A stretch of 64,000 bases of DNA from the NCBI RefSeq assembly GCF_965641715.1, contig NZ_OZ282453.1, one strand, 5' to 3'. Shown here in pieces: positions 284-28,278 of this stretch (positions within the stretch are counted from its first letter, which is position 1; every line of letters starts with the position of its first letter). Below the pieces are notes generated by a model. The model did not search any database, had not been told where the DNA came from, and worked only from the letters and a program-made list of their open reading frames with translations. The stretch comes from Escherichia coli. Its GTDB lineage: Bacteria; Pseudomonadota; Gammaproteobacteria; Enterobacterales; Enterobacteriaceae. The position numbers were made by a program, and so were the translations under genes.

Positions 284-2029
284 ATGATAAAACCGACGTT
301 TTTACGCCGGGTGGCCATTGCTGCTCTGTTCACAGGAAGTTGTTTTAGTACGGTAGCCGCGCCACCTGCGCCGTCTCCTGTTTCTTACGGCGTGGAGGAA
401 GATGTCTTTCATCCGGTACGCGCGAAACAGGGGATGGTGGCATCTGTAGATGCTACTGCCACTCAGGTGGGGGTGGATATCCTCAAGGAGGGCGGGAATG
501 CCGTTGATGCCGCCGTGGCTGTGGGCTACGCGCTGGCGGTAACGCATCCGCAGGCAGGGAATCTGGGCGGTGGTGGTTTTATGCTGATCCGCTCGAAAAA
601 TGGCAATACCACCGCTATCGATTTCCGCGAAATGGCACCCGCCAAAGCGACCCGCGATATGTTCCTTGATGACCAGGGCAACCCGGACAGCAAAAAATCA
701 CTCACTTCGCATCTGGCTTCCGGCACGCCCGGTACGGTCGCTGGTTTCTCGCTGGCGTTGGATAAATACGGCACAATGCCGTTGAACAAAGTGGTGCAGC
801 CAGCGTTTAAACTGGCACGCGATGGTTTTATCGTTAACGACGCGCTGGCTGACGATCTCAAAACCTACGGGAGCGAAGTGCTGCCGAATCACGAAAACAG
901 CAAGGCTATCTTCTGGAAAGAGGGCGAGCCGCTGAAAAAGGGCGACAAGCTGGTGCAGGCGAACCTGGCAAAGAGCCTGGAGATGATTGCCGAAAACGGC
1001 CCGGACGAATTCTACAAAGGCACGATAGCGGAACAGATTGCCCAGGAGATGCAGAAAAACGGTGGCCTGATCACTAAAGAAGATTTAGCGGCGTATAAAG
1101 CGGTCGAACGCACACCGATAAGCGGCGATTATCGCGGGTATCAGGTTTACTCTATGCCACCGCCATCTTCCGGTGGGATTCATATCGTGCAGATCCTCAA
1201 TATTCTGGAAAACTTCGATATGAAGAAATACGGCTTTGGCAGTGCCGATGCGATGCAAATCATGGCAGAGGCTGAGAAATACGCCTACGCCGACCGCTCG
1301 GAATATCTTGGCGACCCGGATTTTGTCAAAGTCCCGTGGCAGGCGCTGACCAATAAAGCCTATGCCAAATCTATTGCCGAGCAAATCGATATCAATAAAG
1401 CGAAACCGTCCAGCGAGATTCGCCCTGGCAAGCTTGCGCCTTATGAGAGTAATCAAACTACCCATTACTCAGTGGTGGATAAAGACGGTAACGCCGTGGC
1501 GGTGACCTATACGCTGAACACCACCTTCGGTACGGGTATTGTCGCGGGCGAGAGCGGTATTCTGCTTAATAACCAGATGGATGATTTCTCCGCCAAACCG
1601 GGCGTACCGAACGTTTACGGGCTGGTAGGCGGTGATGCCAACGCGGTCGGGCCGAATAAACGCCCGCTGTCGTCGATGTCACCAACCATTGTGGTGAAAG
1701 ACGGTAAAACCTGGCTGGTTACCGGTAGCCCTGGCGGGAGCCGGATTATTACCACCGTGCTGCAAATGGTGGTGAATAGCATCGATTATGGCATGAACGT
1801 CGCCGAAGCGACCAATGCGCCGCGTTTCCACCATCAGTGGTTGCCGGACGAGCTGCGTGTCGAAAAAGGGTTTAGCCCGGATACGCTCAAACTGCTGGAA
1901 GCAAAAGGTCAGAAAGTGGCGCTGAAAGAGGCGATGGGCAGTACACAAAGCATTATGGTTGGGCCGGACGGTGAGTTGTACGGCGCATCCGACCCGCGCT
2001 CGGTGGATGATTTAACGGCGGGGTACTAA
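284..2029 (+). CDS. ggt: gamma-glutamyltranspeptidase (periplasmic, Ntn-hydrolase)
   Basis: ORF track 257..2029; N-terminus MIKPTFLRRVAIAAL... signal peptide from the ATG at 284; conserved autoprocessing region ...SNQTTHYSVVD...; full-length match to E. coli GGT as recalled. Confidence 0.95.
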   Translation: MIKPTFLRRVAIAALFTGSCFSTVAAPPAPSPVSYGVEEDVFHPVRAKQGMVASVDATATQVGVDILKEGGNAVDAAVAVGYALAVTHPQAGNLGGGGFMLIRSKNGNTTAIDFREMAPAKATRDMFLDDQGNPDSKKSLTSHLASGTPGTVAGFSLALDKYGTMPLNKVVQPAFKLARDGFIVNDALADDLKTYGSEVLPNHENSKAIFWKEGEPLKKGDKLVQANLAKSLEMIAENGPDEFYKGTIAEQIAQEMQKNGGLITKEDLAAYKAVERTPISGDYRGYQVYSMPPPSSGGIHIVQILNILENFDMKKYGFGSADAMQIMAEAEKYAYADRSEYLGDPDFVKVPWQALTNKAYAKSIAEQIDINKAKPSSEIRPGKLAPYESNQTTHYSVVDKDGNAVAVTYTLNTTFGTGIVAGESGILLNNQMDDFSAKPGVPNVYGLVGGDANAVGPNKRPLSSMSPTIVVKDGKTWLVTGSPGGSRIITTVLQMVVNSIDYGMNVAEATNAPRFHHQWLPDELRVEKGFSPDTLKLLEAKGQKVALKEAMGSTQSIMVGPDGELYGASDPRSVDDLTAGY

Positions 2030-2037
2030 GGTTAGCG

Positions 2038-2066
2038 GCCCTCTTCGTGGGAAGAGGGCTATTTTG
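2038..2066. terminator. Rho-independent terminator hairpin shared by convergent ggt and yrhB
   Basis: Stem GCCCTCTTC (2038..2046) / GAAGAGGGC (2051..2059), loop GTGG, followed by TATTTTG. Confidence 0.7.
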
Positions 2067-2351
2067 TCAGGGCAAGCCGAAGGTAGCCTTTTTTATTTCG
2101 TAATCCTGTAGATATTCTTCCAGCGGCTTTGCCGTTCCCAGAGAATGAATTTCACCACTGTCTTTATCAATAATAAAAGGTGCGTTACCAGCTAAGCGCG
2201 CGGCCTCATCTCCAGTTTCGAGAAATTCTCGTGCTTCGAAACAGAAATACCAGCCCTGGCTAAAGCGTCCATGTAGAGTAATGACGACCGGGAGATCTGC
2301 ATCATCAAGGTAATGGTTCGCTTTCGCGAATGCGTCGTGATAAGTAATCAT
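2067..2351 (-). CDS. yrhB: small 94-aa protein at the position of K-12 yrhB
   Basis: ORF track 2067..2351 (94 aa); size and position next to ggt match K-12 yrhB (recalled); the sequence itself was not independently recognised. Confidence 0.55.
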   Translation of the reverse strand: MITYHDAFAKANHYLDDADLPVVITLHGRFSQGWYFCFEAREFLETGDEAARLAGNAPFIIDKDSGEIHSLGTAKPLEEYLQDYEIKKATFGLP

Positions 2352-2800
2352 AATTATAATAAATATTATTGTTGAATGTTATATTATTATTCCTGTGTGA
2401 TACATTGAGCAAAGGTGCATTCATCTTCGTCAAAGATATTATTAAATGCTGGTTTTGAAAAAAGTTCATCGGATAAGATATAGTCACGAAATAAGTATCT
2501 GCTAATATTTTGTGATTTCTTTTTCAGAACGTCGAACGGGATTTTCTTATTTAAGATATCAGAATCTTATGATTTGGGTAAAATTCTAAATAAATCAACA
2601 TGTCACTAAAATCATCATAGCCATTAGCTATTTCGGCTAAAATAGAGACTACATGTCTTCGGTCCATCTCACTTAAGGAGTGTAGTTCCGTTGTAAGTTT
2701 TTCCATAGCTTGCATTGCTAAATTTCGAACAAGGAATTTTCTGGTGGTAATCTCTAAAAAGATGGCATGGTTTACAATGATTTTTGTTTCCTTTTGATTA

Positions 2801-3295
2801 TTATGAACAACTATCCATGATTTCGTTTAAGAATGAAGAGAAATCACTAAACGAACTGAATATATTTTCTGTGCCAATATTATCTCTAATTTCAAAAAAG
2901 TTACTTTTAATGTCATAAGTAAATATTGAAATGCTATCATCCCCGATCACTAACCGTTCTTGTAGATCAGGGTTTATGAAATCATCATTATTTCTATAAA
3001 ATTCATTTACGGCAAAAAGGTTTTTAACTGAAGGTTCTGGAATCGAGAGGCTAAATAATCGCAATCCATTAACTTCGAATCCATCCATTGCTCTTAAAAA
3101 AGTAAGATAATCAGGTTGATTCTTAAAAAGAATACTAACTTCATTACATAACTTCTCCAGGCAATTAGTTGAATTAGAATTAAATTCTATTTGGATTATA
3201 CTTTCAATAAATGATTCCTTGAGCGGTGCTTCAAATGGATAGTCTAAATCATTCATCATTTTTATTAATTTGTTTATTTGGGTTTTAGTCATCAT
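2801..3295 (-). CDS. putative immunity protein for the upstream HNH-like toxin domain (position of K-12 yrhA)
   Basis: 164-aa acidic ORF; its ATG overlaps the stop of the toxin-domain ORF (ATGA overlap at 3292..3295); AT-rich codon usage like the neighbouring Hcp gene. Confidence 0.5.
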   Translation of the reverse strand: MMTKTQINKLIKMMNDLDYPFEAPLKESFIESIIQIEFNSNSTNCLEKLCNEVSILFKNQPDYLTFLRAMDGFEVNGLRLFSLSIPEPSVKNLFAVNEFYRNNDDFINPDLQERLVIGDDSISIFTYDIKSNFFEIRDNIGTENIFSSFSDFSSFLNEIMDSCS

Positions 3296-3678
3296 TTTGT
3301 GGGTTCCATAATATTTTTCATGGGAGGATAAATTGAGCCAGATGGAATGGCCCAGGGAGTGATTTTGCTTTCACCTACTAATATTCCCTTAGCTATTCGT
3401 GATTGCATGTTAGTAAAAACTTTATGATATGGTTCGTTTTCGATTAATACTAAATTTTCGAAATCATTAGTACCACCATCATCTAGAGATAGTTTATGGT
3501 GAACATTATAATTTAGAGGAACATAGCCCTTTCTCATTCTTAAAAGGTCTTCGGTGTTGAATCTTCCAGATGCTTCGGAGGTTTTTGCAAGTTTGATAAG
3601 AAAATTTTTTCTTACAGTTTTGTTAAACTCCTTTCGTAAGTTAGCTAAGTCTTTTGAAGGTCTCTTAATGTATATTAT
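3292..3678 (-). other. C-terminal HNH-like nuclease toxin domain of an Hcp-toxin fusion (yhhZ-like), in frame with the Hcp ORF but separated from it by one TAA
   Basis: Frame arithmetic: 4470-3537=933 (multiple of 3); the 47 codons between the TAA (3679..3681) and the ATG at 3535..3537 contain no stop and translate cleanly (IIYIKRPSKDLANLRKEFNKTV...); HNH-type motif NVHHKLSLDDGGTNDFENLVLIENEPYHK. Confidence 0.55.
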
Positions 3679-4470
3679 TTATATTATGTCTATGCCATCA
3701 AGAAGTTTTTGTTGATCTCTAAGTTTGCCTAAGTAACTATTTATTTCTGTATATGTATCAACTTTAGAACGCTTTGTTAAAAGAATAGATGCTGTTGCTA
3801 TCGCTATGCCCGCTGTTTTTTCATTTAGTATTTGATCATAGCCTTTGATTGCATCTCCACCCAGTTTTTCCGCAGTATCTCTGAATCCTTCAATGTTCCC
3901 ATTGTATACGCCACCAGCAGCAAGTAGCCTGCCAACAGCTTTGCTGTTTAACGTTTTGAAACGATTATTTGTTTGGTTTTTTGAATTTGGTAAAAACAAA
4001 CGGTTATAATTTTCAGGGAGTGCCAAATAGCTGAACTCGGTATTTGCGATAAGATGTTGACAGAGGATAAATTCATAACTAACAGTTATTGTTTCTGTAT
4101 CCAGTTGATTTTGAATGATCTGATGATGAATAGCCGATAAAAAAGCGCCTCTTAGTTGTGTATAATAATACTTTTCCCATCTACCAAATCTATTGATTCT
4201 ATAAAAGTCAAATTTCATAAATAATTGCTCATTATTGTTAATGGAATTAATAAGTAATGGAGTGCTTTTATCAATTAATTTACAAAATGTCATAGCCTGT
4301 AACTGTGAACCAAGCCCCGTATTAGTAATTCTATTTTCGAGTGAGAATGTAAATATTTCATTCTCATGCCCGCTCTGCCAGCGATTACCTATAGATTCAG
4401 TAGTCCCACAACCTGCGGAGATGCTTCCTTGTTGTTCTCCCGTTACTGTCAGATAAACAATATTACTCAT
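3679..4470 (-). CDS. yhhZ: Hcp (type VI secretion tube protein) domain with C-terminal extension; N-terminal part of a yhhZ-like Hcp-toxin fusion ending at an in-frame TAA
   Basis: N-terminus MSNIVYLTVTGEQQGSISAGCGTTESIGNRWQSGHENEIFTFS is Hcp-like; 263 codons to TAA at 3679..3681; ORFs 3679..4470 and 3292..3537 share one frame; combined length ~392 codons equals K-12 YhhZ as recalled. Confidence 0.7.
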   Translation of the reverse strand: MSNIVYLTVTGEQQGSISAGCGTTESIGNRWQSGHENEIFTFSLENRITNTGLGSQLQAMTFCKLIDKSTPLLINSINNNEQLFMKFDFYRINRFGRWEKYYYTQLRGAFLSAIHHQIIQNQLDTETITVSYEFILCQHLIANTEFSYLALPENYNRLFLPNSKNQTNNRFKTLNSKAVGRLLAAGGVYNGNIEGFRDTAEKLGGDAIKGYDQILNEKTAGIAIATASILLTKRSKVDTYTEINSYLGKLRDQQKLLDGIDII

Positions 4471-4706
4471 CCCTGAAAAGTCCTTTTATGGCATGCTATT
4501 TTATCAATGGCACTATTATGCTTGTTAATTGTTATTTATTTACTCCAGGAAATTGTAGGCGTATATATTAAAAAATAAAATATTACACTTTAGGAAGTAA
4601 TTATGAGGTAAGTCTCAATATATTTATTGGGAAAATAAATACATTAAAGGAAGGTATGCCGATTTTGAATGACACCCTTTTTCCATCTCAGAAAAAGGGC
4701 ACTATT

Positions 4707-5195
4707 TTACTTCACCCGCGCCATAAAATACGCATCAACATATTCACCATTACGTAATGCGTACTTCTTGCCAGTCCCTTCAATCTCAAAGCCGAATTTT
4801 TTATAGACCTTAATTGCTGGCGCGTTATCGACAAACACCGTTAGCTCAATACGATCTACCCGCAACCAGTTGTCGCACATTTCAATCATCTCTCGCATCA
4901 GGGCGCTGGCGACGCCGCGATTCTTCCAGCGGGCGTCGACACAGATACCAAAATCGGCAACATGACTGCGGCGTGGGCGCTGTTGCACGTCAATGGTGAG
5001 ATGGCCCACGACGTCTCCATCAATACAGGCGACGAGTTGCTTGATGCCGGGACGATTGGCGAGTCGCTCCTGCCACATATAATCGGAAGGATGAGGCACT
5101 TGTAGCGTGTTGTAATACACCTCCGGCTGGGCGTGAATCTGCCTGATGGCCTCGTAATCGCGCGTTTCAGCATGGCGTATCACTATCTCACTCAT
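4707..5195 (-). CDS. yhhY: GNAT-family N-acetyltransferase
   Basis: ORF track 4707..5273; likely start at the ATG 5193..5195 (MSEIVIRHAETRDYEAIRQIH...) preceded by GAGGA; 162 aa. Confidence 0.85.
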   Translation of the reverse strand: MSEIVIRHAETRDYEAIRQIHAQPEVYYNTLQVPHPSDYMWQERLANRPGIKQLVACIDGDVVGHLTIDVQQRPRRSHVADFGICVDARWKNRGVASALMREMIEMCDNWLRVDRIELTVFVDNAPAIKVYKKFGFEIEGTGKKYALRNGEYVDAYFMARVK

Positions 5196-10752: not shown

Positions 10753-12849
10753 ATGGAAAAGCACGCAGCTGAATTGCTTTTACAGCGGATGTTAGGAAAT
10801 ACCACCGCTACTTTCAGGGAAGGGCAATGGGAAGCCATAGACGCGGTGGTGAACCAACGGCGAAAACTGCTGGTTGTCCAACGCACTGGCTGGGGGAAAA
10901 GTGCTGTGTACTTCATCGCCAGTAAAATCTTCCGCGATCGCGGCGCTGGCCCGACAATTATCATCTCTCCTTTGCTTGCCCTGATGCGTAACCAGGTTGC
11001 CGCCGCTGAACGGTTAGGTATTACGGCTGAAACGTTGAATTCTACAAACAGAGAAGAATGGCAGCGCATTAGCGATAAGTTGCTGCAAGGTGAGGTCGAT
11101 TGCTTGCTGGTTTCCCCGGAACGTTTGGCAAACCAGGACTTTATCGAAACGGTTTTATATCCTATAGCCGATCGTATTGGCTTGCTTGTGGTCGACGAGG
11201 CGCACTGCATCTCTGATTGGGGCCACGATTTTCGCCCGGATTACCGACGTATATTAGATATTTTGCGCCAACTACCTGCGAATACCCCTGTTCTGGGTAC
11301 AACCGCGACAGCGAATAACCGTGTCGTTGAGGATATCCGTCAGCAATTGGGTGACATTGTGATTCAGCGTGGAACGCTGGCTCGCGAAAGTTTGGCGCTT
11401 GATGCCTTAGTCTTAGGTGAACAGTCATCCCGTCTGGCATGGTTAGCAACGGTTATCCCTCAGTTTTCCAAATCGGGAATTGTTTATACCCTGACTACTC
11501 GCGATGCCGAACTTGTCGCCGAGTGGTTAAGGAAAAATGGTATCAGTGCATTTGCTTACTACAGCGGCGTGACTTGCGAAGGCGCGGAAGATTCTAATAC
11601 TGCCAGGGAATATCTGGAGCAGGCGTTGCTGGCAAATAAAATTAAAGTGCTGGTTGCGACAACGGCGCTGGGAATGGGCTTTGACAAACCGGATTTGGGG
11701 TTTGTTATTCATTACCAGATGCCAGGTTCGATAGTTGGTTACTACCAACAGGTGGGGCGTGCCGGTCGCGGTATCGATTCTGCTGTTGGCATACTGCTTT
11801 GCGGCAGTGAAGACCGTGCTATTCATAAATTCTTCCGTGAAAGCGCCTTTCCTGCGGAGGCGCAAATTCATGAAATACTCAACGTACTTAGCGTGAATGA
11901 CGGTCTTACCTTACGAGGCATTGAACAACGGACGAATCTCCGTTATGGGCAAATAGAAAAAGCACTGAAATTATTGGTAGCTGAAAATCCATCGCCTGTG
12001 GTGTATACCGAGAAATTATGGCGCAGAACAATTGTCAGTTTTTCTCCTGACCATGAACGAATTAACCATTTGATGAATCAGAGAAAAAGTGAGCTGGCAG
12101 ACGTTGAAAGCTATATCACGACCAAGGAGTGCAAAATGCAATTTCTGCGCCGCGCACTCGATGAGCCAGGTGCCGAACATTGTGGTAAATGTAGCAGTTG
12201 TCTTCAGCATCCGTTGTTGTCGCCCGACATTGATAGCGGCTTACTCCATGCGGCAAACTTATTTATTAAACACGCTGACCTGCCATTAAATCTCAATAAA
12301 CAGGTGGCAGCTGGGGCTTTTACGCAATACGGATTTAAAGGGAACTTGCCTGCGAGTTTACAAGGATCTACGGGGCGAATCCTTTCTCGTTGGGGAGATT
12401 CCGGGTGGGGAAAGCAGGTAGCACAGGAGAAAAAAACGGGGCGATTCAGTGATGAACTGGTGGAGGCATGTGCGGAAATGGTTCGCCAACGCTGGAATCC
12501 GCATCCTGAACCAACCTGGGTATGCTGCGTTCCTTCATTAAAGCACCTCGACCTGGTTCCTGATTTTGCCCGGCGACTGGCGGCGAAACTTGGCTTACCT
12601 TTTATTGATGCCATTGAAAAAGTCGTGGACAATCCACCGCAGAAAATGCAGCAAAACCGTTTCCACCAGTGTCAAAATCTCGACGGGGCGTTTGTGATTA
12701 CCCCTCCTTTGATGCCTGGTCCGGCGTTGCTGGTTGACGATATCGTGGATTCTGCATGGACGCTGACAGTTCTGACAGCACTGTTACGCCAGGCAGGTTG
12801 CCCGACGGTTTATCCTCTTGCCCTTGCTTCTACCTCGGTAAAAAATTGA
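10753..12849 (+). CDS. RecQ-like superfamily-2 DNA helicase fused to a C-terminal divergent phosphoribosyltransferase (ComF/GntX-like) domain; candidate toxin/effector of a two-gene module
   Basis: 698-aa ORF. Walker A QRTGWGKSAV, DEAH box LLVVDEAHCISDWGHDFR, motif VI QQVGRAGRG, Cys cluster CKMQ...HCGKCSSC, C-terminal PRTase-like fold with altered PRPP loop (LLVDDIVDSAWTL). Strong AGGAGA RBS. Confidence 0.85.
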   Translation: MEKHAAELLLQRMLGNTTATFREGQWEAIDAVVNQRRKLLVVQRTGWGKSAVYFIASKIFRDRGAGPTIIISPLLALMRNQVAAAERLGITAETLNSTNREEWQRISDKLLQGEVDCLLVSPERLANQDFIETVLYPIADRIGLLVVDEAHCISDWGHDFRPDYRRILDILRQLPANTPVLGTTATANNRVVEDIRQQLGDIVIQRGTLARESLALDALVLGEQSSRLAWLATVIPQFSKSGIVYTLTTRDAELVAEWLRKNGISAFAYYSGVTCEGAEDSNTAREYLEQALLANKIKVLVATTALGMGFDKPDLGFVIHYQMPGSIVGYYQQVGRAGRGIDSAVGILLCGSEDRAIHKFFRESAFPAEAQIHEILNVLSVNDGLTLRGIEQRTNLRYGQIEKALKLLVAENPSPVVYTEKLWRRTIVSFSPDHERINHLMNQRKSELADVESYITTKECKMQFLRRALDEPGAEHCGKCSSCLQHPLLSPDIDSGLLHAANLFIKHADLPLNLNKQVAAGAFTQYGFKGNLPASLQGSTGRILSRWGDSGWGKQVAQEKKTGRFSDELVEACAEMVRQRWNPHPEPTWVCCVPSLKHLDLVPDFARRLAAKLGLPFIDAIEKVVDNPPQKMQQNRFHQCQNLDGAFVITPPLMPGPALLVDDIVDSAWTLTVLTALLRQAGCPTVYPLALASTSVKN

Positions 12850-14051
12850 TGAATCTTTCAGCCAATGCACAAGCAACTCTCCTGCTAACCAGCGATTTTT
12901 CTCGCGCGGCGGCGAGTGAGTATAAACCTCTTAGTAATAGTGAATGGGGGAAGTTTGCATTATGGCTGAAGCACCAACGTATCAGTCCCGCCGAGCTTCT
13001 GGTGCCGCAACCGCAAGAGAAACTTACAGGCTGGAGCGATCCGCGTATTTCTCAGGAGCGTATTCTTGGCTTGCTGGCGCGTGGTCATAGTCTGGCGTTG
13101 GCGGTAGATAAGTGGCAACGCGCCGGTTTATGGATCTTAACCCGCGGAGATGCTGATTATCCCGTTCGCTTGAAAAACCGATTGCGAACGGATGCACCTC
13201 CCGTTTTATTTGGCTGCGGGAATAAAGCATTACTGCAAGCGGAAGGTATGGCGATTGTTGGCTCGCGAGATGCTCCGACTGACGATTTGCGCTATACCCA
13301 ACAACTGGCCGCGAAACTGGCCCAACAGGGGATTTGCGTTATCTCTGGTGGTGCGCGAGGTATTGATGAATGTGCAATGGCGTCGGCACTGGAGGCCGGG
13401 GGAACTGCCGTTGGCGTATTAGCTGATAGCTTGTTAAAAACGAGTACGTTAGTGAAATGGCGTGAAGGGCTTATAGCAGGCAACCTGGTGTTGATTTCGC
13501 CGTTTTACCCAGAGGTACGTTTCACCGTCGGCAATGCGATGGCGCGAAATAAATATATTTATTGCCTTGCTGAAAGCGCAATGGTTGTACGTGCGGGAAT
13601 GACCGGTGGAACGATAACCGGGGCGATGGAGGCATTAAAACATCAGTGGCTGCCTGTGCAGGTTAAACCAAATCAGGATATGCAATCAGCCAATTCACGA
13701 TTAGTAGAAAATGGGGCGTCATGGAGTGCTGAACAGGCTGAGAATGTGACGATCAGACTGCCAGACGTTCCTGGGCTGATGTATGACAGAGCACTCCGTA
13801 ACGCTCAACCAGAACTGTTTTCGCTGCATGAAGATGACGCAAATTACGCAGTAATGCCCGCGTATACGCCTGTCGATTTTTATCAACTCTTTGTGGCGGA
13901 ACTGGCGATCCTTGCAAAGGAATCGATAAGTATTGAAAGGCTGGCGTCTTGTACTGGTTTAACCATCGAACAAATTAGTGTGTGGCTGAACCGCGCAGAA
14001 GAAGAGGGAAGGGTTATCCGATTGGGCGAAGGTCATTATCAGTTCAGGTAA
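12849..14051 (+). CDS. DprA/Smf-like protein; candidate antitoxin/partner of the RecQ-PRTase protein
   Basis: ATG at 12849..12851 overlaps the helicase TGA (12847..12849); 400 aa (MNLSANAQATLLL...); Rossmann signature GMAIVGSRDAPTDDLRYTQQLAAKLAQQGICVISGGARGIDECAMASALEAGG; ORF track extends it upstream in the same frame (12756). Confidence 0.8.
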   Translation: MNLSANAQATLLLTSDFSRAAASEYKPLSNSEWGKFALWLKHQRISPAELLVPQPQEKLTGWSDPRISQERILGLLARGHSLALAVDKWQRAGLWILTRGDADYPVRLKNRLRTDAPPVLFGCGNKALLQAEGMAIVGSRDAPTDDLRYTQQLAAKLAQQGICVISGGARGIDECAMASALEAGGTAVGVLADSLLKTSTLVKWREGLIAGNLVLISPFYPEVRFTVGNAMARNKYIYCLAESAMVVRAGMTGGTITGAMEALKHQWLPVQVKPNQDMQSANSRLVENGASWSAEQAENVTIRLPDVPGLMYDRALRNAQPELFSLHEDDANYAVMPAYTPVDFYQLFVAELAILAKESISIERLASCTGLTIEQISVWLNRAEEEGRVIRLGEGHYQFR

Positions 14052-25742: not shown

Positions 25743-27260
25743 ATGGACAGAATGATGCCAAATAGAAAATGGATTTTGACCTCGCTGATAATGACTTTTT
25801 TCGGCATCCCCATACTGGCGCAATTTTTGGCAGCGGTTGTTGCCATGCTGGGTGTCGGGCTTACCGGTATTATTGAAGTTTGTAATATCCTTATCACGCC
25901 AACAATTTATCTTCTACTCAACGTCTTTATGCTGACGCTGGGGGCGATAATAATATTTTTCTCTGGTCGCGTGTGGGCCGGTGATAGCGCGCCAGAAAAC
26001 AGAGAAATAGCCGTCTGGCGGCAATGCTTTTTTCTCTTACCCGCGCTATTAACCTTGGTTGGCTGGATAATCACGCTACATCTGGCAGATTATCAATTTC
26101 GCCAGATGGGAGCTGGTTGGTTGGCAAACCTTATGCTTCCCTGGTTGGGCGTTTTTTTAGTCTCATTAGTGGGTGGTGAGTACTGGTGGATGGTCATTAT
26201 TCCCGTTGGGGCGCATATCAGTTTTTCGCTGGGATACGCCTGGCCGACCAGATATCCTTTATCCGGCACGTCCGGACTACGTTGCCGTAACTTACTCCTG
26301 TTTCTACTTATCTTACTTGGTATTGTCGCCGGGTATCAGGCCCATTTATATAAGCAGCAAAATCCTGGTGTCGGTGTACGCGAAAATATTGATATCTGGG
26401 CCTGGCGACCCGATAAACTCAATAATCGACTGACGCCGCTGCGTGGCAAACCGCAAATTCAGTTTAGGCAAAACTGGCCGCGAATCGATGGCGCCACGGC
26501 TGCGTACCCAATTTATGCTTCTGCATTTTATGCATTAAGTGTAATACCAGAGGATTTTCACGTTTGGGATTATCTGGAAAACTCTCGTACGCCAGAAGCA
26601 TATAACAAAATCGTTAAGGGCGATGCTGATATTATTTTCGTGGCGCAACCTTCCGGTGGGCAAAAAAAACGTGCAAAGGAATCTGGTGTCACTTTGGTGT
26701 ACACCCCCTTTGCCCGTGAAGCATTCGTTTTCATCGTCAATGCGGATAATCCGGTTAATTCCCTGACTGAACAACAGGTGCGTGACATTTTCAGTGGTGC
26801 AATTACCAATTGGCGTACTGTTGGCGGTAACGATCAGGAGATCCAGACCTGGCAGCGCCCGGAAGACTCTGGCAGCCAGACAGTGATGCAATCACAGGTC
26901 ATGAAAAATGTCCGCATGATCTCGCCGCAGGAAACGGAAGTGGCAAGCGTGATGGAGGGAATGATTAAAGTCGTTGCCGAATACCGTAATACAAACAACG
27001 CAATAGGCTATACCTTCCGCTATTACGCGACGCAAATGAATGCCGATAAAAATATAAAACTGCTAGCGATTAACGGTATTGCACCGACTGCGGAAAATAT
27101 TCGCAATGGCAAATATGCGTACATCGTCGATGCATTTATGGTGACGAGAGAAAATACAACGTCAGAAACACAAAAACTGGTCGAATGGTTTTTAACGCCG
27201 CAGGGGCAGAGTCTGGTAGAAGATGTGGGATATGTGCCGCTGTATCCAACAATGGAATAA
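25743..27260 (+). CDS. membrane-anchored PstS-like (PBP-like) substrate-binding protein: ~6-7 TM N-terminal domain plus C-terminal binding domain
   Basis: 505-aa ORF; N-terminal ~200 aa with several hydrophobic helices; C-terminal domain paralogous to the next gene (IIFVAQPSGGQKKRAKESGV...WQRPEDSGSQTVMQ); start codon uncertain (25743, 25752 or 25755). Confidence 0.75.
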   Translation: MDRMMPNRKWILTSLIMTFFGIPILAQFLAAVVAMLGVGLTGIIEVCNILITPTIYLLLNVFMLTLGAIIIFFSGRVWAGDSAPENREIAVWRQCFFLLPALLTLVGWIITLHLADYQFRQMGAGWLANLMLPWLGVFLVSLVGGEYWWMVIIPVGAHISFSLGYAWPTRYPLSGTSGLRCRNLLLFLLILLGIVAGYQAHLYKQQNPGVGVRENIDIWAWRPDKLNNRLTPLRGKPQIQFRQNWPRIDGATAAYPIYASAFYALSVIPEDFHVWDYLENSRTPEAYNKIVKGDADIIFVAQPSGGQKKRAKESGVTLVYTPFAREAFVFIVNADNPVNSLTEQQVRDIFSGAITNWRTVGGNDQEIQTWQRPEDSGSQTVMQSQVMKNVRMISPQETEVASVMEGMIKVVAEYRNTNNAIGYTFRYYATQMNADKNIKLLAINGIAPTAENIRNGKYAYIVDAFMVTRENTTSETQKLVEWFLTPQGQSLVEDVGYVPLYPTME

Positions 27261-27285
27261 CGCTCGAGAGAAAGGAATCAGCGAG

Positions 27286-28278
27286 ATGAATAAATTCACC
27301 GGTGTTTTACTATTAGGCACGGCGTTACTGGCGGGATGTGTCGACCGGGAAGGGTACTATAACAGCGTCAGGGAAGAAGAGAGCCATGGACTGACGTCTC
27401 TGCGGGGGCAACCTGCATTACGTTACAGCGATGATTGGTCAAGATGGCCGAGAGTGTACGGCGCTACAGCCTTATACCCGCTGTATGCCTCCGCGTATTA
27501 TAAATTAGTACCCGAGCCAAAAGATAAGGATCGAACCTCGCTGGCCTGGCAGGCGTATGGTTTGCAGCAAACCCGAACAGCTGAAGCCTACGATAGTCTG
27601 ATTAAAGGTTCCGCGACGGTTATTTTTGTTGCACAACCGTCGGAAGGACAGAAAAAACGTGCAGAAGAAGCGGGTGTTAAACTGAAATATACCGCTTTCG
27701 CCCGCGAAGCCTTTGTCTTTATCGTTGATATTAATAACCCGGTAAATTCTCTCTCTGAGCACCAGGTTAAAGATATTTTTAGCGGCAAAACTAGCCGCTG
27801 GAATAAAGTAGGTGGTAGTGACGAACATATAAAAGTCTGGCAGCGCCCTGAAGATTCTGGAAGCCAAACGATTATGAAGGGATTGGTTATGCAAGACACC
27901 CCAATGCTGCCAGCTAAAAAATCCACTGTGATTGATCTTATGGGCGGTTTAATTACTGAAGTTGCCGACTATCAAAACACGCCATCTTCCATTGGGTACA
28001 CCTTCCACTATTACGTCACTCGTATGAATGACAATATGCTCAAAATGCGCAAGCAGATTAAACTTTTGGCTATAAATGGCGTTGCGCCTACCGAGGAAAA
28101 TATCCGCAACGGCACTTATCCATACATTGTGGATGCCTATATGGTGACGCGTGAAAATCCCACGCCGGAAACGCAGAAATTTGTTGACTGGTTTATAAGT
28201 CAGCAGGGGCAACAGTTGGTAGAGGATGTGGGGTATGTGCCGCTGTATGAAGCATCCCCCGAATCATCAGGACAATAA
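27286..28278 (+). CDS. PstS-like (PBP-like) substrate-binding lipoprotein, paralogue of the upstream gene
   Basis: Frame of ORF 27223..28278; start MNKFTGVLLLGTALLAGC (lipobox LLAGC) at 27286 after AAAGGAA; 330 aa; shares VIFVAQPSEGQKKRAEEAGV...WQRPEDSGSQTIMKG with the upstream gene. Confidence 0.8.
   Translation: MNKFTGVLLLGTALLAGCVDREGYYNSVREEESHGLTSLRGQPALRYSDDWSRWPRVYGATALYPLYASAYYKLVPEPKDKDRTSLAWQAYGLQQTRTAEAYDSLIKGSATVIFVAQPSEGQKKRAEEAGVKLKYTAFAREAFVFIVDINNPVNSLSEHQVKDIFSGKTSRWNKVGGSDEHIKVWQRPEDSGSQTIMKGLVMQDTPMLPAKKSTVIDLMGGLITEVADYQNTPSSIGYTFHYYVTRMNDNMLKMRKQIKLLAINGVAPTEENIRNGTYPYIVDAYMVTRENPTPETQKFVDWFISQQGQQLVEDVGYVPLYEASPESSGQ

Follow-up and report, generated by a model that had tools for sequence, protein, structure and literature searches.

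An intact yrhA gene beside a nonsense allele of yhhZ in Escherichia coli: very probably the orphaned immunity gene ETI1 of the Hcp-ET1 effector

The gene yrhA lies on the minus strand of a 64,000-nucleotide stretch of Escherichia coli DNA (RefSeq assembly GCF_965641715.1, contig NZ_OZ282453.1; referred to as the window in its whole length) and encodes an acidic protein of 164 amino acids (aa). Very probably, YrhA is ETI1, the cognate immunity protein of YhhZ/Hcp-ET1, a type VI secretion system (T6SS) effector in which Hcp is fused C-terminally to an HNH DNase, and it stands here as an orphan. The toxin gene yhhZ is a nonsense pseudogene (E264*) and the strain is unable to make the effector; this strain therefore has no working toxin-immunity pair, which in effect leaves yrhA as an orphaned immunity gene.

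The first-pass annotation of the window, made from its letters, had described a 164-aa acidic open reading frame (ORF) with an ATG overlapping the TGA of an HNH frame, which agrees with the sequence at the yhhZ/yrhA junction (minus-strand letters: ACAAAATGATGACT) and with an isoelectric point (pI) of 4.26, the protein having 26 D+E vs 13 K+R residues. The same 4-nucleotide overlap of the coding sequences is annotated in strains PapRG-04-4, K-12, 55989 and C227-11. The G+C content of yrhA is 28.9% vs 51.5% for the whole window. A strong Shine-Dalgarno sequence is absent before the yrhA ATG (TATGGAACCCACAAA), and a scan for an internal yrhA promoter or terminator gave 9 promoter-like sites against a chance expectation of 11.7 and no persuasive terminator candidate between yhhZ and yrhA. 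Among 5426 complete E. coli genomes, the region spanning window positions 2000-4600 is present in 4505 (megablast), while the 495-nucleotide yrhA, annotated under the same name, is covered to at least 80% in 3404 and found at an identity of at least 99% in 2552. Moreover, YrhA belongs to the NCBIfam family NF038335, the “YrhA family” (YPO0640_fam), with 125.5 bits (cut-off 55; E=1.5e-36) and residues 4-163 aligned to profile positions 2-149 of 150. Since the same gene recurs in so many genomes and the family score exceeds the cut-off, these comparisons mark the ORF as a genuine gene and not a chance frame, namely the ordinary, previously described yrhA of E. coli.

The effector Hcp-ET1 and its partner ETI1, of E. 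coli STEC004, O104:H4 C227-11 and 55989, were reportedly characterised by Ma et al. 2017 (Virulence 8:1189). According to two reviews (PMC6099711, PMC6730261) and a preprint (bioRxiv 10.1101/2024.03.05.583533), Hcp-ET1 is delivered by T6SS2 and is toxic by its HNH DNase, and ETI1, whose gene follows directly downstream, neutralises it; one review gives AAF13_24945 as the locus tag of Hcp-ET1. In C227-11, the chromosomal genes AAF13_RS24945 and AAF13_RS24950 correspond to yrhA and tssD, respectively, both located between ggt and yhhY. The same ggt-yhhY region forms the left end of the window. The gene order ggt-yrhB-yrhD-yrhA-tssD-yhhY is common to the window and C227-11, 55989 is arranged alike, and the backbone gene order of these two strains is also that of the window's large ORFs. 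YrhA is identical to its C227-11 orthologue in 163 of 164 residues, the sole change being D16N. Because this identity is found at the very locus that bears the tag cited for Hcp-ET1, yrhA is, by orthology, ETI1. With the Hcp-ET1/ETI1 system, the locus of the window shares the position between yhhY and ggt, the gene order and the ATGA overlap (3292-3295), the immunity gene lying directly 3' of the Hcp-HNH gene and overlapping it. It differs in the toxin gene, which carries E264* and 24 other substitutions, most of them in the Hcp domain, and the effector half is consequently inactive here.

In fact, the two minus-strand ORFs of 263 aa (3679-4470) and 81 aa (3292-3537) upstream of yrhA form one gene of 392 codons, yhhZ/tssD. 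What had at first been called an HNH-like segment does contain an HNH reading frame with its TGA end, but it is the tail of this gene, cut by a TAA at codon 264, and not a gene of its own. The intact Hcp-HNH effector gene that belongs to an Hcp-ET1/ETI1 pair is therefore missing in the window. An identical yhhZ allele in strain A30 is annotated by PGAP as a pseudogene with “internal stop”. A 61-nucleotide query centred on the TAA had an exact match in only 2 of the 3500 complete E. coli genomes having this stretch, namely A30 (from baboon) and 2018-05-2CC, and because the allele is so rare, it presumably arose recently. Compared with the intact-toxin strain PapRG-04-4, YrhA shows 0 amino-acid differences and yrhA 2 synonymous differences.

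Such a history could also mean that yrhA is a decaying and functionless remnant, which lost its coupled translation after the stop at codon 264 and has merely not yet mutated. Ribosomes now stop 384 nucleotides upstream of the yrhA start, and the missing strong Shine-Dalgarno sequence as well as the promoter scan, which did not exceed chance, fit this explanation. We nevertheless consider it unlikely, as the ORF is intact, the protein is identical to that of intact-toxin strains and orphan immunity genes are commonly kept in polymorphic toxin loci (PMC3482391). The lack of decay as such is uninformative in either direction, because the nonsense allele is evidently recent. It is far less probable still that the 81-aa remnant of the toxin (M312-K392) is translated and mildly toxic and that yrhA is kept as its antitoxin in an addiction-like manner: although the remnant ORF retains the entire HNH core (H324-H349) and the ATGA end, a ribosome-binding site is not evident before M312, and the fragment is devoid of the three N-terminal helices (H8-49) of the HNH domain as modelled below.

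YrhA itself matched no Pfam family at E<=0.1 and no PADLOC model, so that its family assignment went via NCBIfam, homologues and structure; a single-sequence search of PDB sequences returned noise only, chiefly antibody heavy chains at E 0.045 or worse. A whole-library phmmer search yielded 67 representatives of YrhA relatives. In an alignment of 42 full-length members linked by phmmer, the motif DYxxFLxxMDGFExNG is conserved, and Pfam matches among these members were to SMI1_KNR4 (SUKH-1; 16), SUKH_6 (14) and SUKH_5 (13), while a search with the family profile retrieved 2ICG, a structure of the SUKH type, at E=0.0018. The sequence relationship to SUKH proteins is transitive, as YrhA gave no direct match to a Pfam SUKH model (SMI1_KNR4, SUKH_5, SUKH_6 and others); it is accompanied by a predicted alpha+beta fold and by the adjacent nuclease toxin of a polymorphic toxin system. 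The comparison with immunity families, which the first-pass annotation had proposed, hence led to the YrhA family of NCBIfam and from there, via homologues and fold, to SUKH. Structure modelling predicts the SUKH immunity fold for YrhA, with Bacillus subtilis YobK (2PRV), Lin2918 (2ICG) and the SMI1/KNR4-family protein RhsPI (8BD1_B) as relatives. Within this superfamily (Zhang, Iyer and Aravind 2011, PMC3113570), YrhA is set apart by a divergence too great for a direct Pfam match, an extra N-terminal helical segment (H2-34) and an NCBIfam family of its own.

An immunity protein of the colicin Im7/Im9 type was considered as well and ruled out, YrhA being a 164-aa SUKH-like alpha+beta protein vs four helices in about 85 aa. 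No Im7/Im9 structure was among the matches of the model of YrhA alone; the only Im7-labelled matches were 4f37_F, which is sequence noise (E 0.84), and 7CEI_B, whose alignment is with the toxin portion of the fusion modelled below. The systems also differ in delivery, with receptor-mediated colicin import for the colicin E7/E9 DNases and their Im7/Im9 partners vs T6SS delivery as an Hcp fusion for YhhZ.

Genomic neighbours were obtained from exact-protein look-ups of eleven YrhA homologues, which are 27-67% identical. In Citrobacter, where the site is again the ggt locus, the homologue lies 3' of an Hcp fusion of 394 aa. In Leclercia and on five metagenomic contigs, it follows proteins of 295-382 aa with N-termini that are DUF8093 or unassigned, not Hcp, in addition to one upstream gene truncated by the contig end, and a distant SUKH relative is preceded by a stand-alone HNH protein of 122 aa. 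The C-terminus of the upstream protein was a YhhZ-type module in 9/9 loci, sharing 37-68% identity along as many as 217 residues; in blastp with residues 172-392 of YhhZ, the alignments to upstream proteins of the DUF8093 type and others spanned 210-217 residues. The closer a toxin is in identity to its E. coli counterpart, the closer its immunity protein tends to be as well (Spearman correlation 0.88), to which shared phylogeny contributes. Because the homologues follow the HNH module behind Hcp, DUF8093 and other domains alike, YrhA appears to track the toxin domain and not the delivery domain or the secretion apparatus, and this behaviour is the hallmark of immunity genes in polymorphic toxin systems (PMC3482391).

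Two of the eleven look-ups were off this pattern. On contig L017 (316-2752), an orphan YrhA homologue (about 50% identical) stands after a DUF8093-Ntox30 toxin, a probable immunity gene of 124 aa and a 58-aa ORF, an arrangement that is an immunity-type array. Contig L014 (Logan SRR33321306; partner of P0132) was excluded as a probable library artefact: its composition is strongly strand-asymmetric (A 16%, T 30%, G 38% and C 16%), its proteins resemble A-to-G-converted copies of the YhhZ/YrhA pair, and it probably stems from a chemically or enzymatically converted library and not from a genuine divergent homologue.

An alternative option could be that YrhA has the SUKH fold without an immunity role, acting instead as a chaperone or adaptor that loads Hcp-HNH into the T6SS, or as a Syd/Knr4-like regulator, in which case the adjacency of the genes would reflect assembly. 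This seems very improbable to us, since the YrhA homologues accompany the HNH module with Hcp, DUF8093 or another delivery domain, an orphan copy sits in the immunity-type array of L017 after another toxin-immunity pair, and reviews state that ETI1 neutralises the toxin.

How an immunity protein YrhA would act can be outlined from these features. YrhA is a cytoplasmic, acidic protein; most likely it forms a 1:1 complex with the basic HNH domain and blocks the DNase, in line with the complementary charges of the two (pI 4.3 vs 9.8 for the HNH domain), and it would guard the producing cell and its kin against toxin that is synthesised internally or injected by sister cells. As the yrhA start overlaps the stop of the toxin gene, with which it would be co-transcribed, both proteins should normally be made together; judging by the overlapping ATGA and a weak ribosome-binding site, yrhA may be translationally coupled to yhhZ. 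After the recent E264* mutation, yrhA would persist as an orphan, possibly still able to protect against Hcp-ET1 from other E. coli. We modelled the pair with AlphaFold (AF2) as a fused chain, in which a Gly-Ser linker of 30 residues joins HNH residues 265-392 to YrhA, using a paired alignment of 11 rows, in which columns H60, H61, K62, D66, D67, G69, N71, N75 and H85 are invariant. The predicted template modelling score (pTM) of 0.79 is above expectation for two independent halves and, as an indirect proxy, suggests a defined HNH:YrhA interface; both domains were confident, and the local confidence measure pLDDT fell below 50 only at residues 122-157, i.e., the linker and a few flanking residues. 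The immunity role postulated in the first-pass annotation is thereby supported from several sides, namely by ETI1 orthology in C227-11, the SUKH fold, the conserved pairing with HNH and the pTM of the fused model. The present analysis established which gene this is, its fold, its conserved linkage and the pseudogene state of the toxin, and the neutralisation of toxicity is adopted from the literature on the 163/164-identical orthologue.

Several points weigh against the assignment of yrhA as the immunity gene. YrhA has no match to any immunity family of Pfam, and the HNH domain beside it scores under the Pfam gathering score. The evidence for an interface is suggestive, the pTM being an indirect proxy and the paired alignment having only 11 rows, and the neutralisation claim is second-hand (reviews and a preprint) and concerns the orthologue, not the allele of the window, to which it may carry over. 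With the toxin being a pseudogene, present protection by yrhA would depend on attack by other strains. Finally, K-12 tolerates an intact yhhZ together with a disrupted yrhA, so that loss of full-length YrhA does not invariably make the toxin lethal, or the toxin is silent in K-12; either the toxin is thus silent or harmless in that strain, or the YrhA stub of 130 residues still works.

The yhhZ-yrhA locus of K-12 is orthologous to that of the window (97% nucleotide identity) and presents its mirror image, with yhhZ intact (392 codons) and yrhA cut by IS1E after residue ~130, whereas here the situation is reversed. At positions 3477-5068 of the K-12 locus, full-length yhhZ is retained beside the IS1-truncated yrhA. 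The genome annotation of K-12 places the insertion sequence IS1 between yrhD and a truncated YrhA of 138 aa, and an IS1E within K-12 yrhA is described in the literature (PMC12428005). The first-pass annotation had named both the K-12 equivalence and the interruption by IS1, correctly so, as the K-12 genome annotation, the cited paper and the mapping of the site to 2903-2914 of the window agree. It had also taken the ORF of the window to be uninterrupted and free of IS1, and indeed the 164-aa ORF is intact and blastn of the K-12 locus found no IS1 sequence across the 64-kb window.

Table 1. Coordinates of yrhA, the yhhZ pseudogene and adjoining features in the window
Feature	Position	Strand	Basis or remark
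yrhA (ETI1), 164 aa; acidic protein of predicted SUKH fold that very probably confers immunity to the HNH DNase of YhhZ/Hcp-ET1	2801..3295	-	
ATGA; yhhZ stop TGA (3294-3292) and yrhA start ATG (3295-3293) share bases	3292..3295	-	Sequence
Site of the K-12 IS1E in yrhA, YrhA residues 128-131, uninterrupted here	2903..2914	.	blastn of K-12 locus vs window
81-aa ORF (M312-K392), the “HNH-like segment” of the first-pass annotation	3292-3537	-	
yhhZ codons 265-392, HNH (His-Me finger) DNase toxin domain, 3' of the premature stop	3295..3678	-	
HNH catalytic core, YhhZ H324-H349: HHKLSLDDGGTNDFENLVLIENEPYH	3424..3501	-	Invariant columns of the paired alignment
Nonsense codon TAA, in frame, at codon 264 of yhhZ (other strains: GAA); inactivates the toxin gene	3679..3681	-	
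yhhZ codons 172-263, linker/pre-toxin (KTLNSKAxGRLLAAGG...), accompanies the HNH domain in non-Hcp toxins	3682..3957	-	
yhhZ codons 1-147, Hcp (TssD) T6SS tube/delivery domain	4030..4470	-	Pfam T6SS_HCP 1e-12; TIGR03344 2.7e-36
yrhD, small ORF 3' of yrhA	2551..2715	-	Named yrhD in relatives; no family match in Pfam/NCBIfam scans
yrhB, 94 aa, second immunity-type gene	2067..2351	-	Pfam Imm35 4e-23

The gene yrhA, its family and its role as the immunity protein of Hcp-ET1 are already known, and the importance of the locus beyond annotation is small, its sole local novelty being the rare nonsense toxin allele that leaves yrhA an orphan. To this, the structural analysis adds the placement of YrhA in the SUKH immunity fold, as predicted by modelling, which is not visible in Pfam. 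The appropriate annotation of the locus is “orphan immunity plus hcp-ET1 pseudogene” and not an active effector-immunity pair. Moreover, the HNH/YrhA cassette is common to non-Hcp (DUF8093) toxins of other genera, which bears on the prediction of cross-immunity between strains.

On the Leclercia contig L010 (2845-8501) and on contigs L019, L012 and L013, the HNH module and the YrhA homologue are found with a DUF8093 N-terminus instead of Hcp. The Leclercia pair adjoins a gene for a contact-dependent inhibition (CDI)-type filamentous haemagglutinin/PT-VENN protein as well as Imm63 and Imm70 genes. The HNH module and YrhA might form a mobile cassette that, in Enterobacterales, is shuffled among delivery domains including Hcp and DUF8093, with the intact yrhA of the window serving as an orphan “shield”; we put this forward tentatively, leaning slightly against it ourselves. 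If true, the orphan yrhA would shield against the same DNase delivered by several routes from competing strains, and the loss of the toxin with retention of immunity here and the reverse in K-12 would be alternative outcomes of disarmament.

Apart from yrhA, the locus contains yrhB, whose Imm35 family is tied to papain-like Tox-PL1 toxins (PMC3482391). No papain-like toxin is present in the locus, and yrhB looks like a second orphan immunity gene; the papain-like Hcp-ET5, which is named in reviews, could be its missing partner. The block yrhB-yrhD-yrhA-yhhZ (2067-4470) has a G+C content of 29-46%, compared with 51.5% for the window and 50-55% for the flanking ggt and yhhY, and this AT-rich stretch is consistent with a horizontally acquired islet.

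Elsewhere in the window, a two-gene insert (10753-14051, plus strand) lies between gntU and yhgN, a junction at which 55989 and C227-11 lack it. Its products are a DEAD/Helicase_C protein of 698 aa (PADLOC PsyrT, 1066 bits) and a DprA/SLOG protein of 431 aa (PsyrA, E 1.5e-202), and the insert is a PsyrTA toxin-antitoxin/anti-phage defence pair. Further along, two PstS-like PBP_like_2 ORFs follow glgP (25743-28278, plus strand), and a PstS-family gene is found at the same position in 55989 and C227-11.
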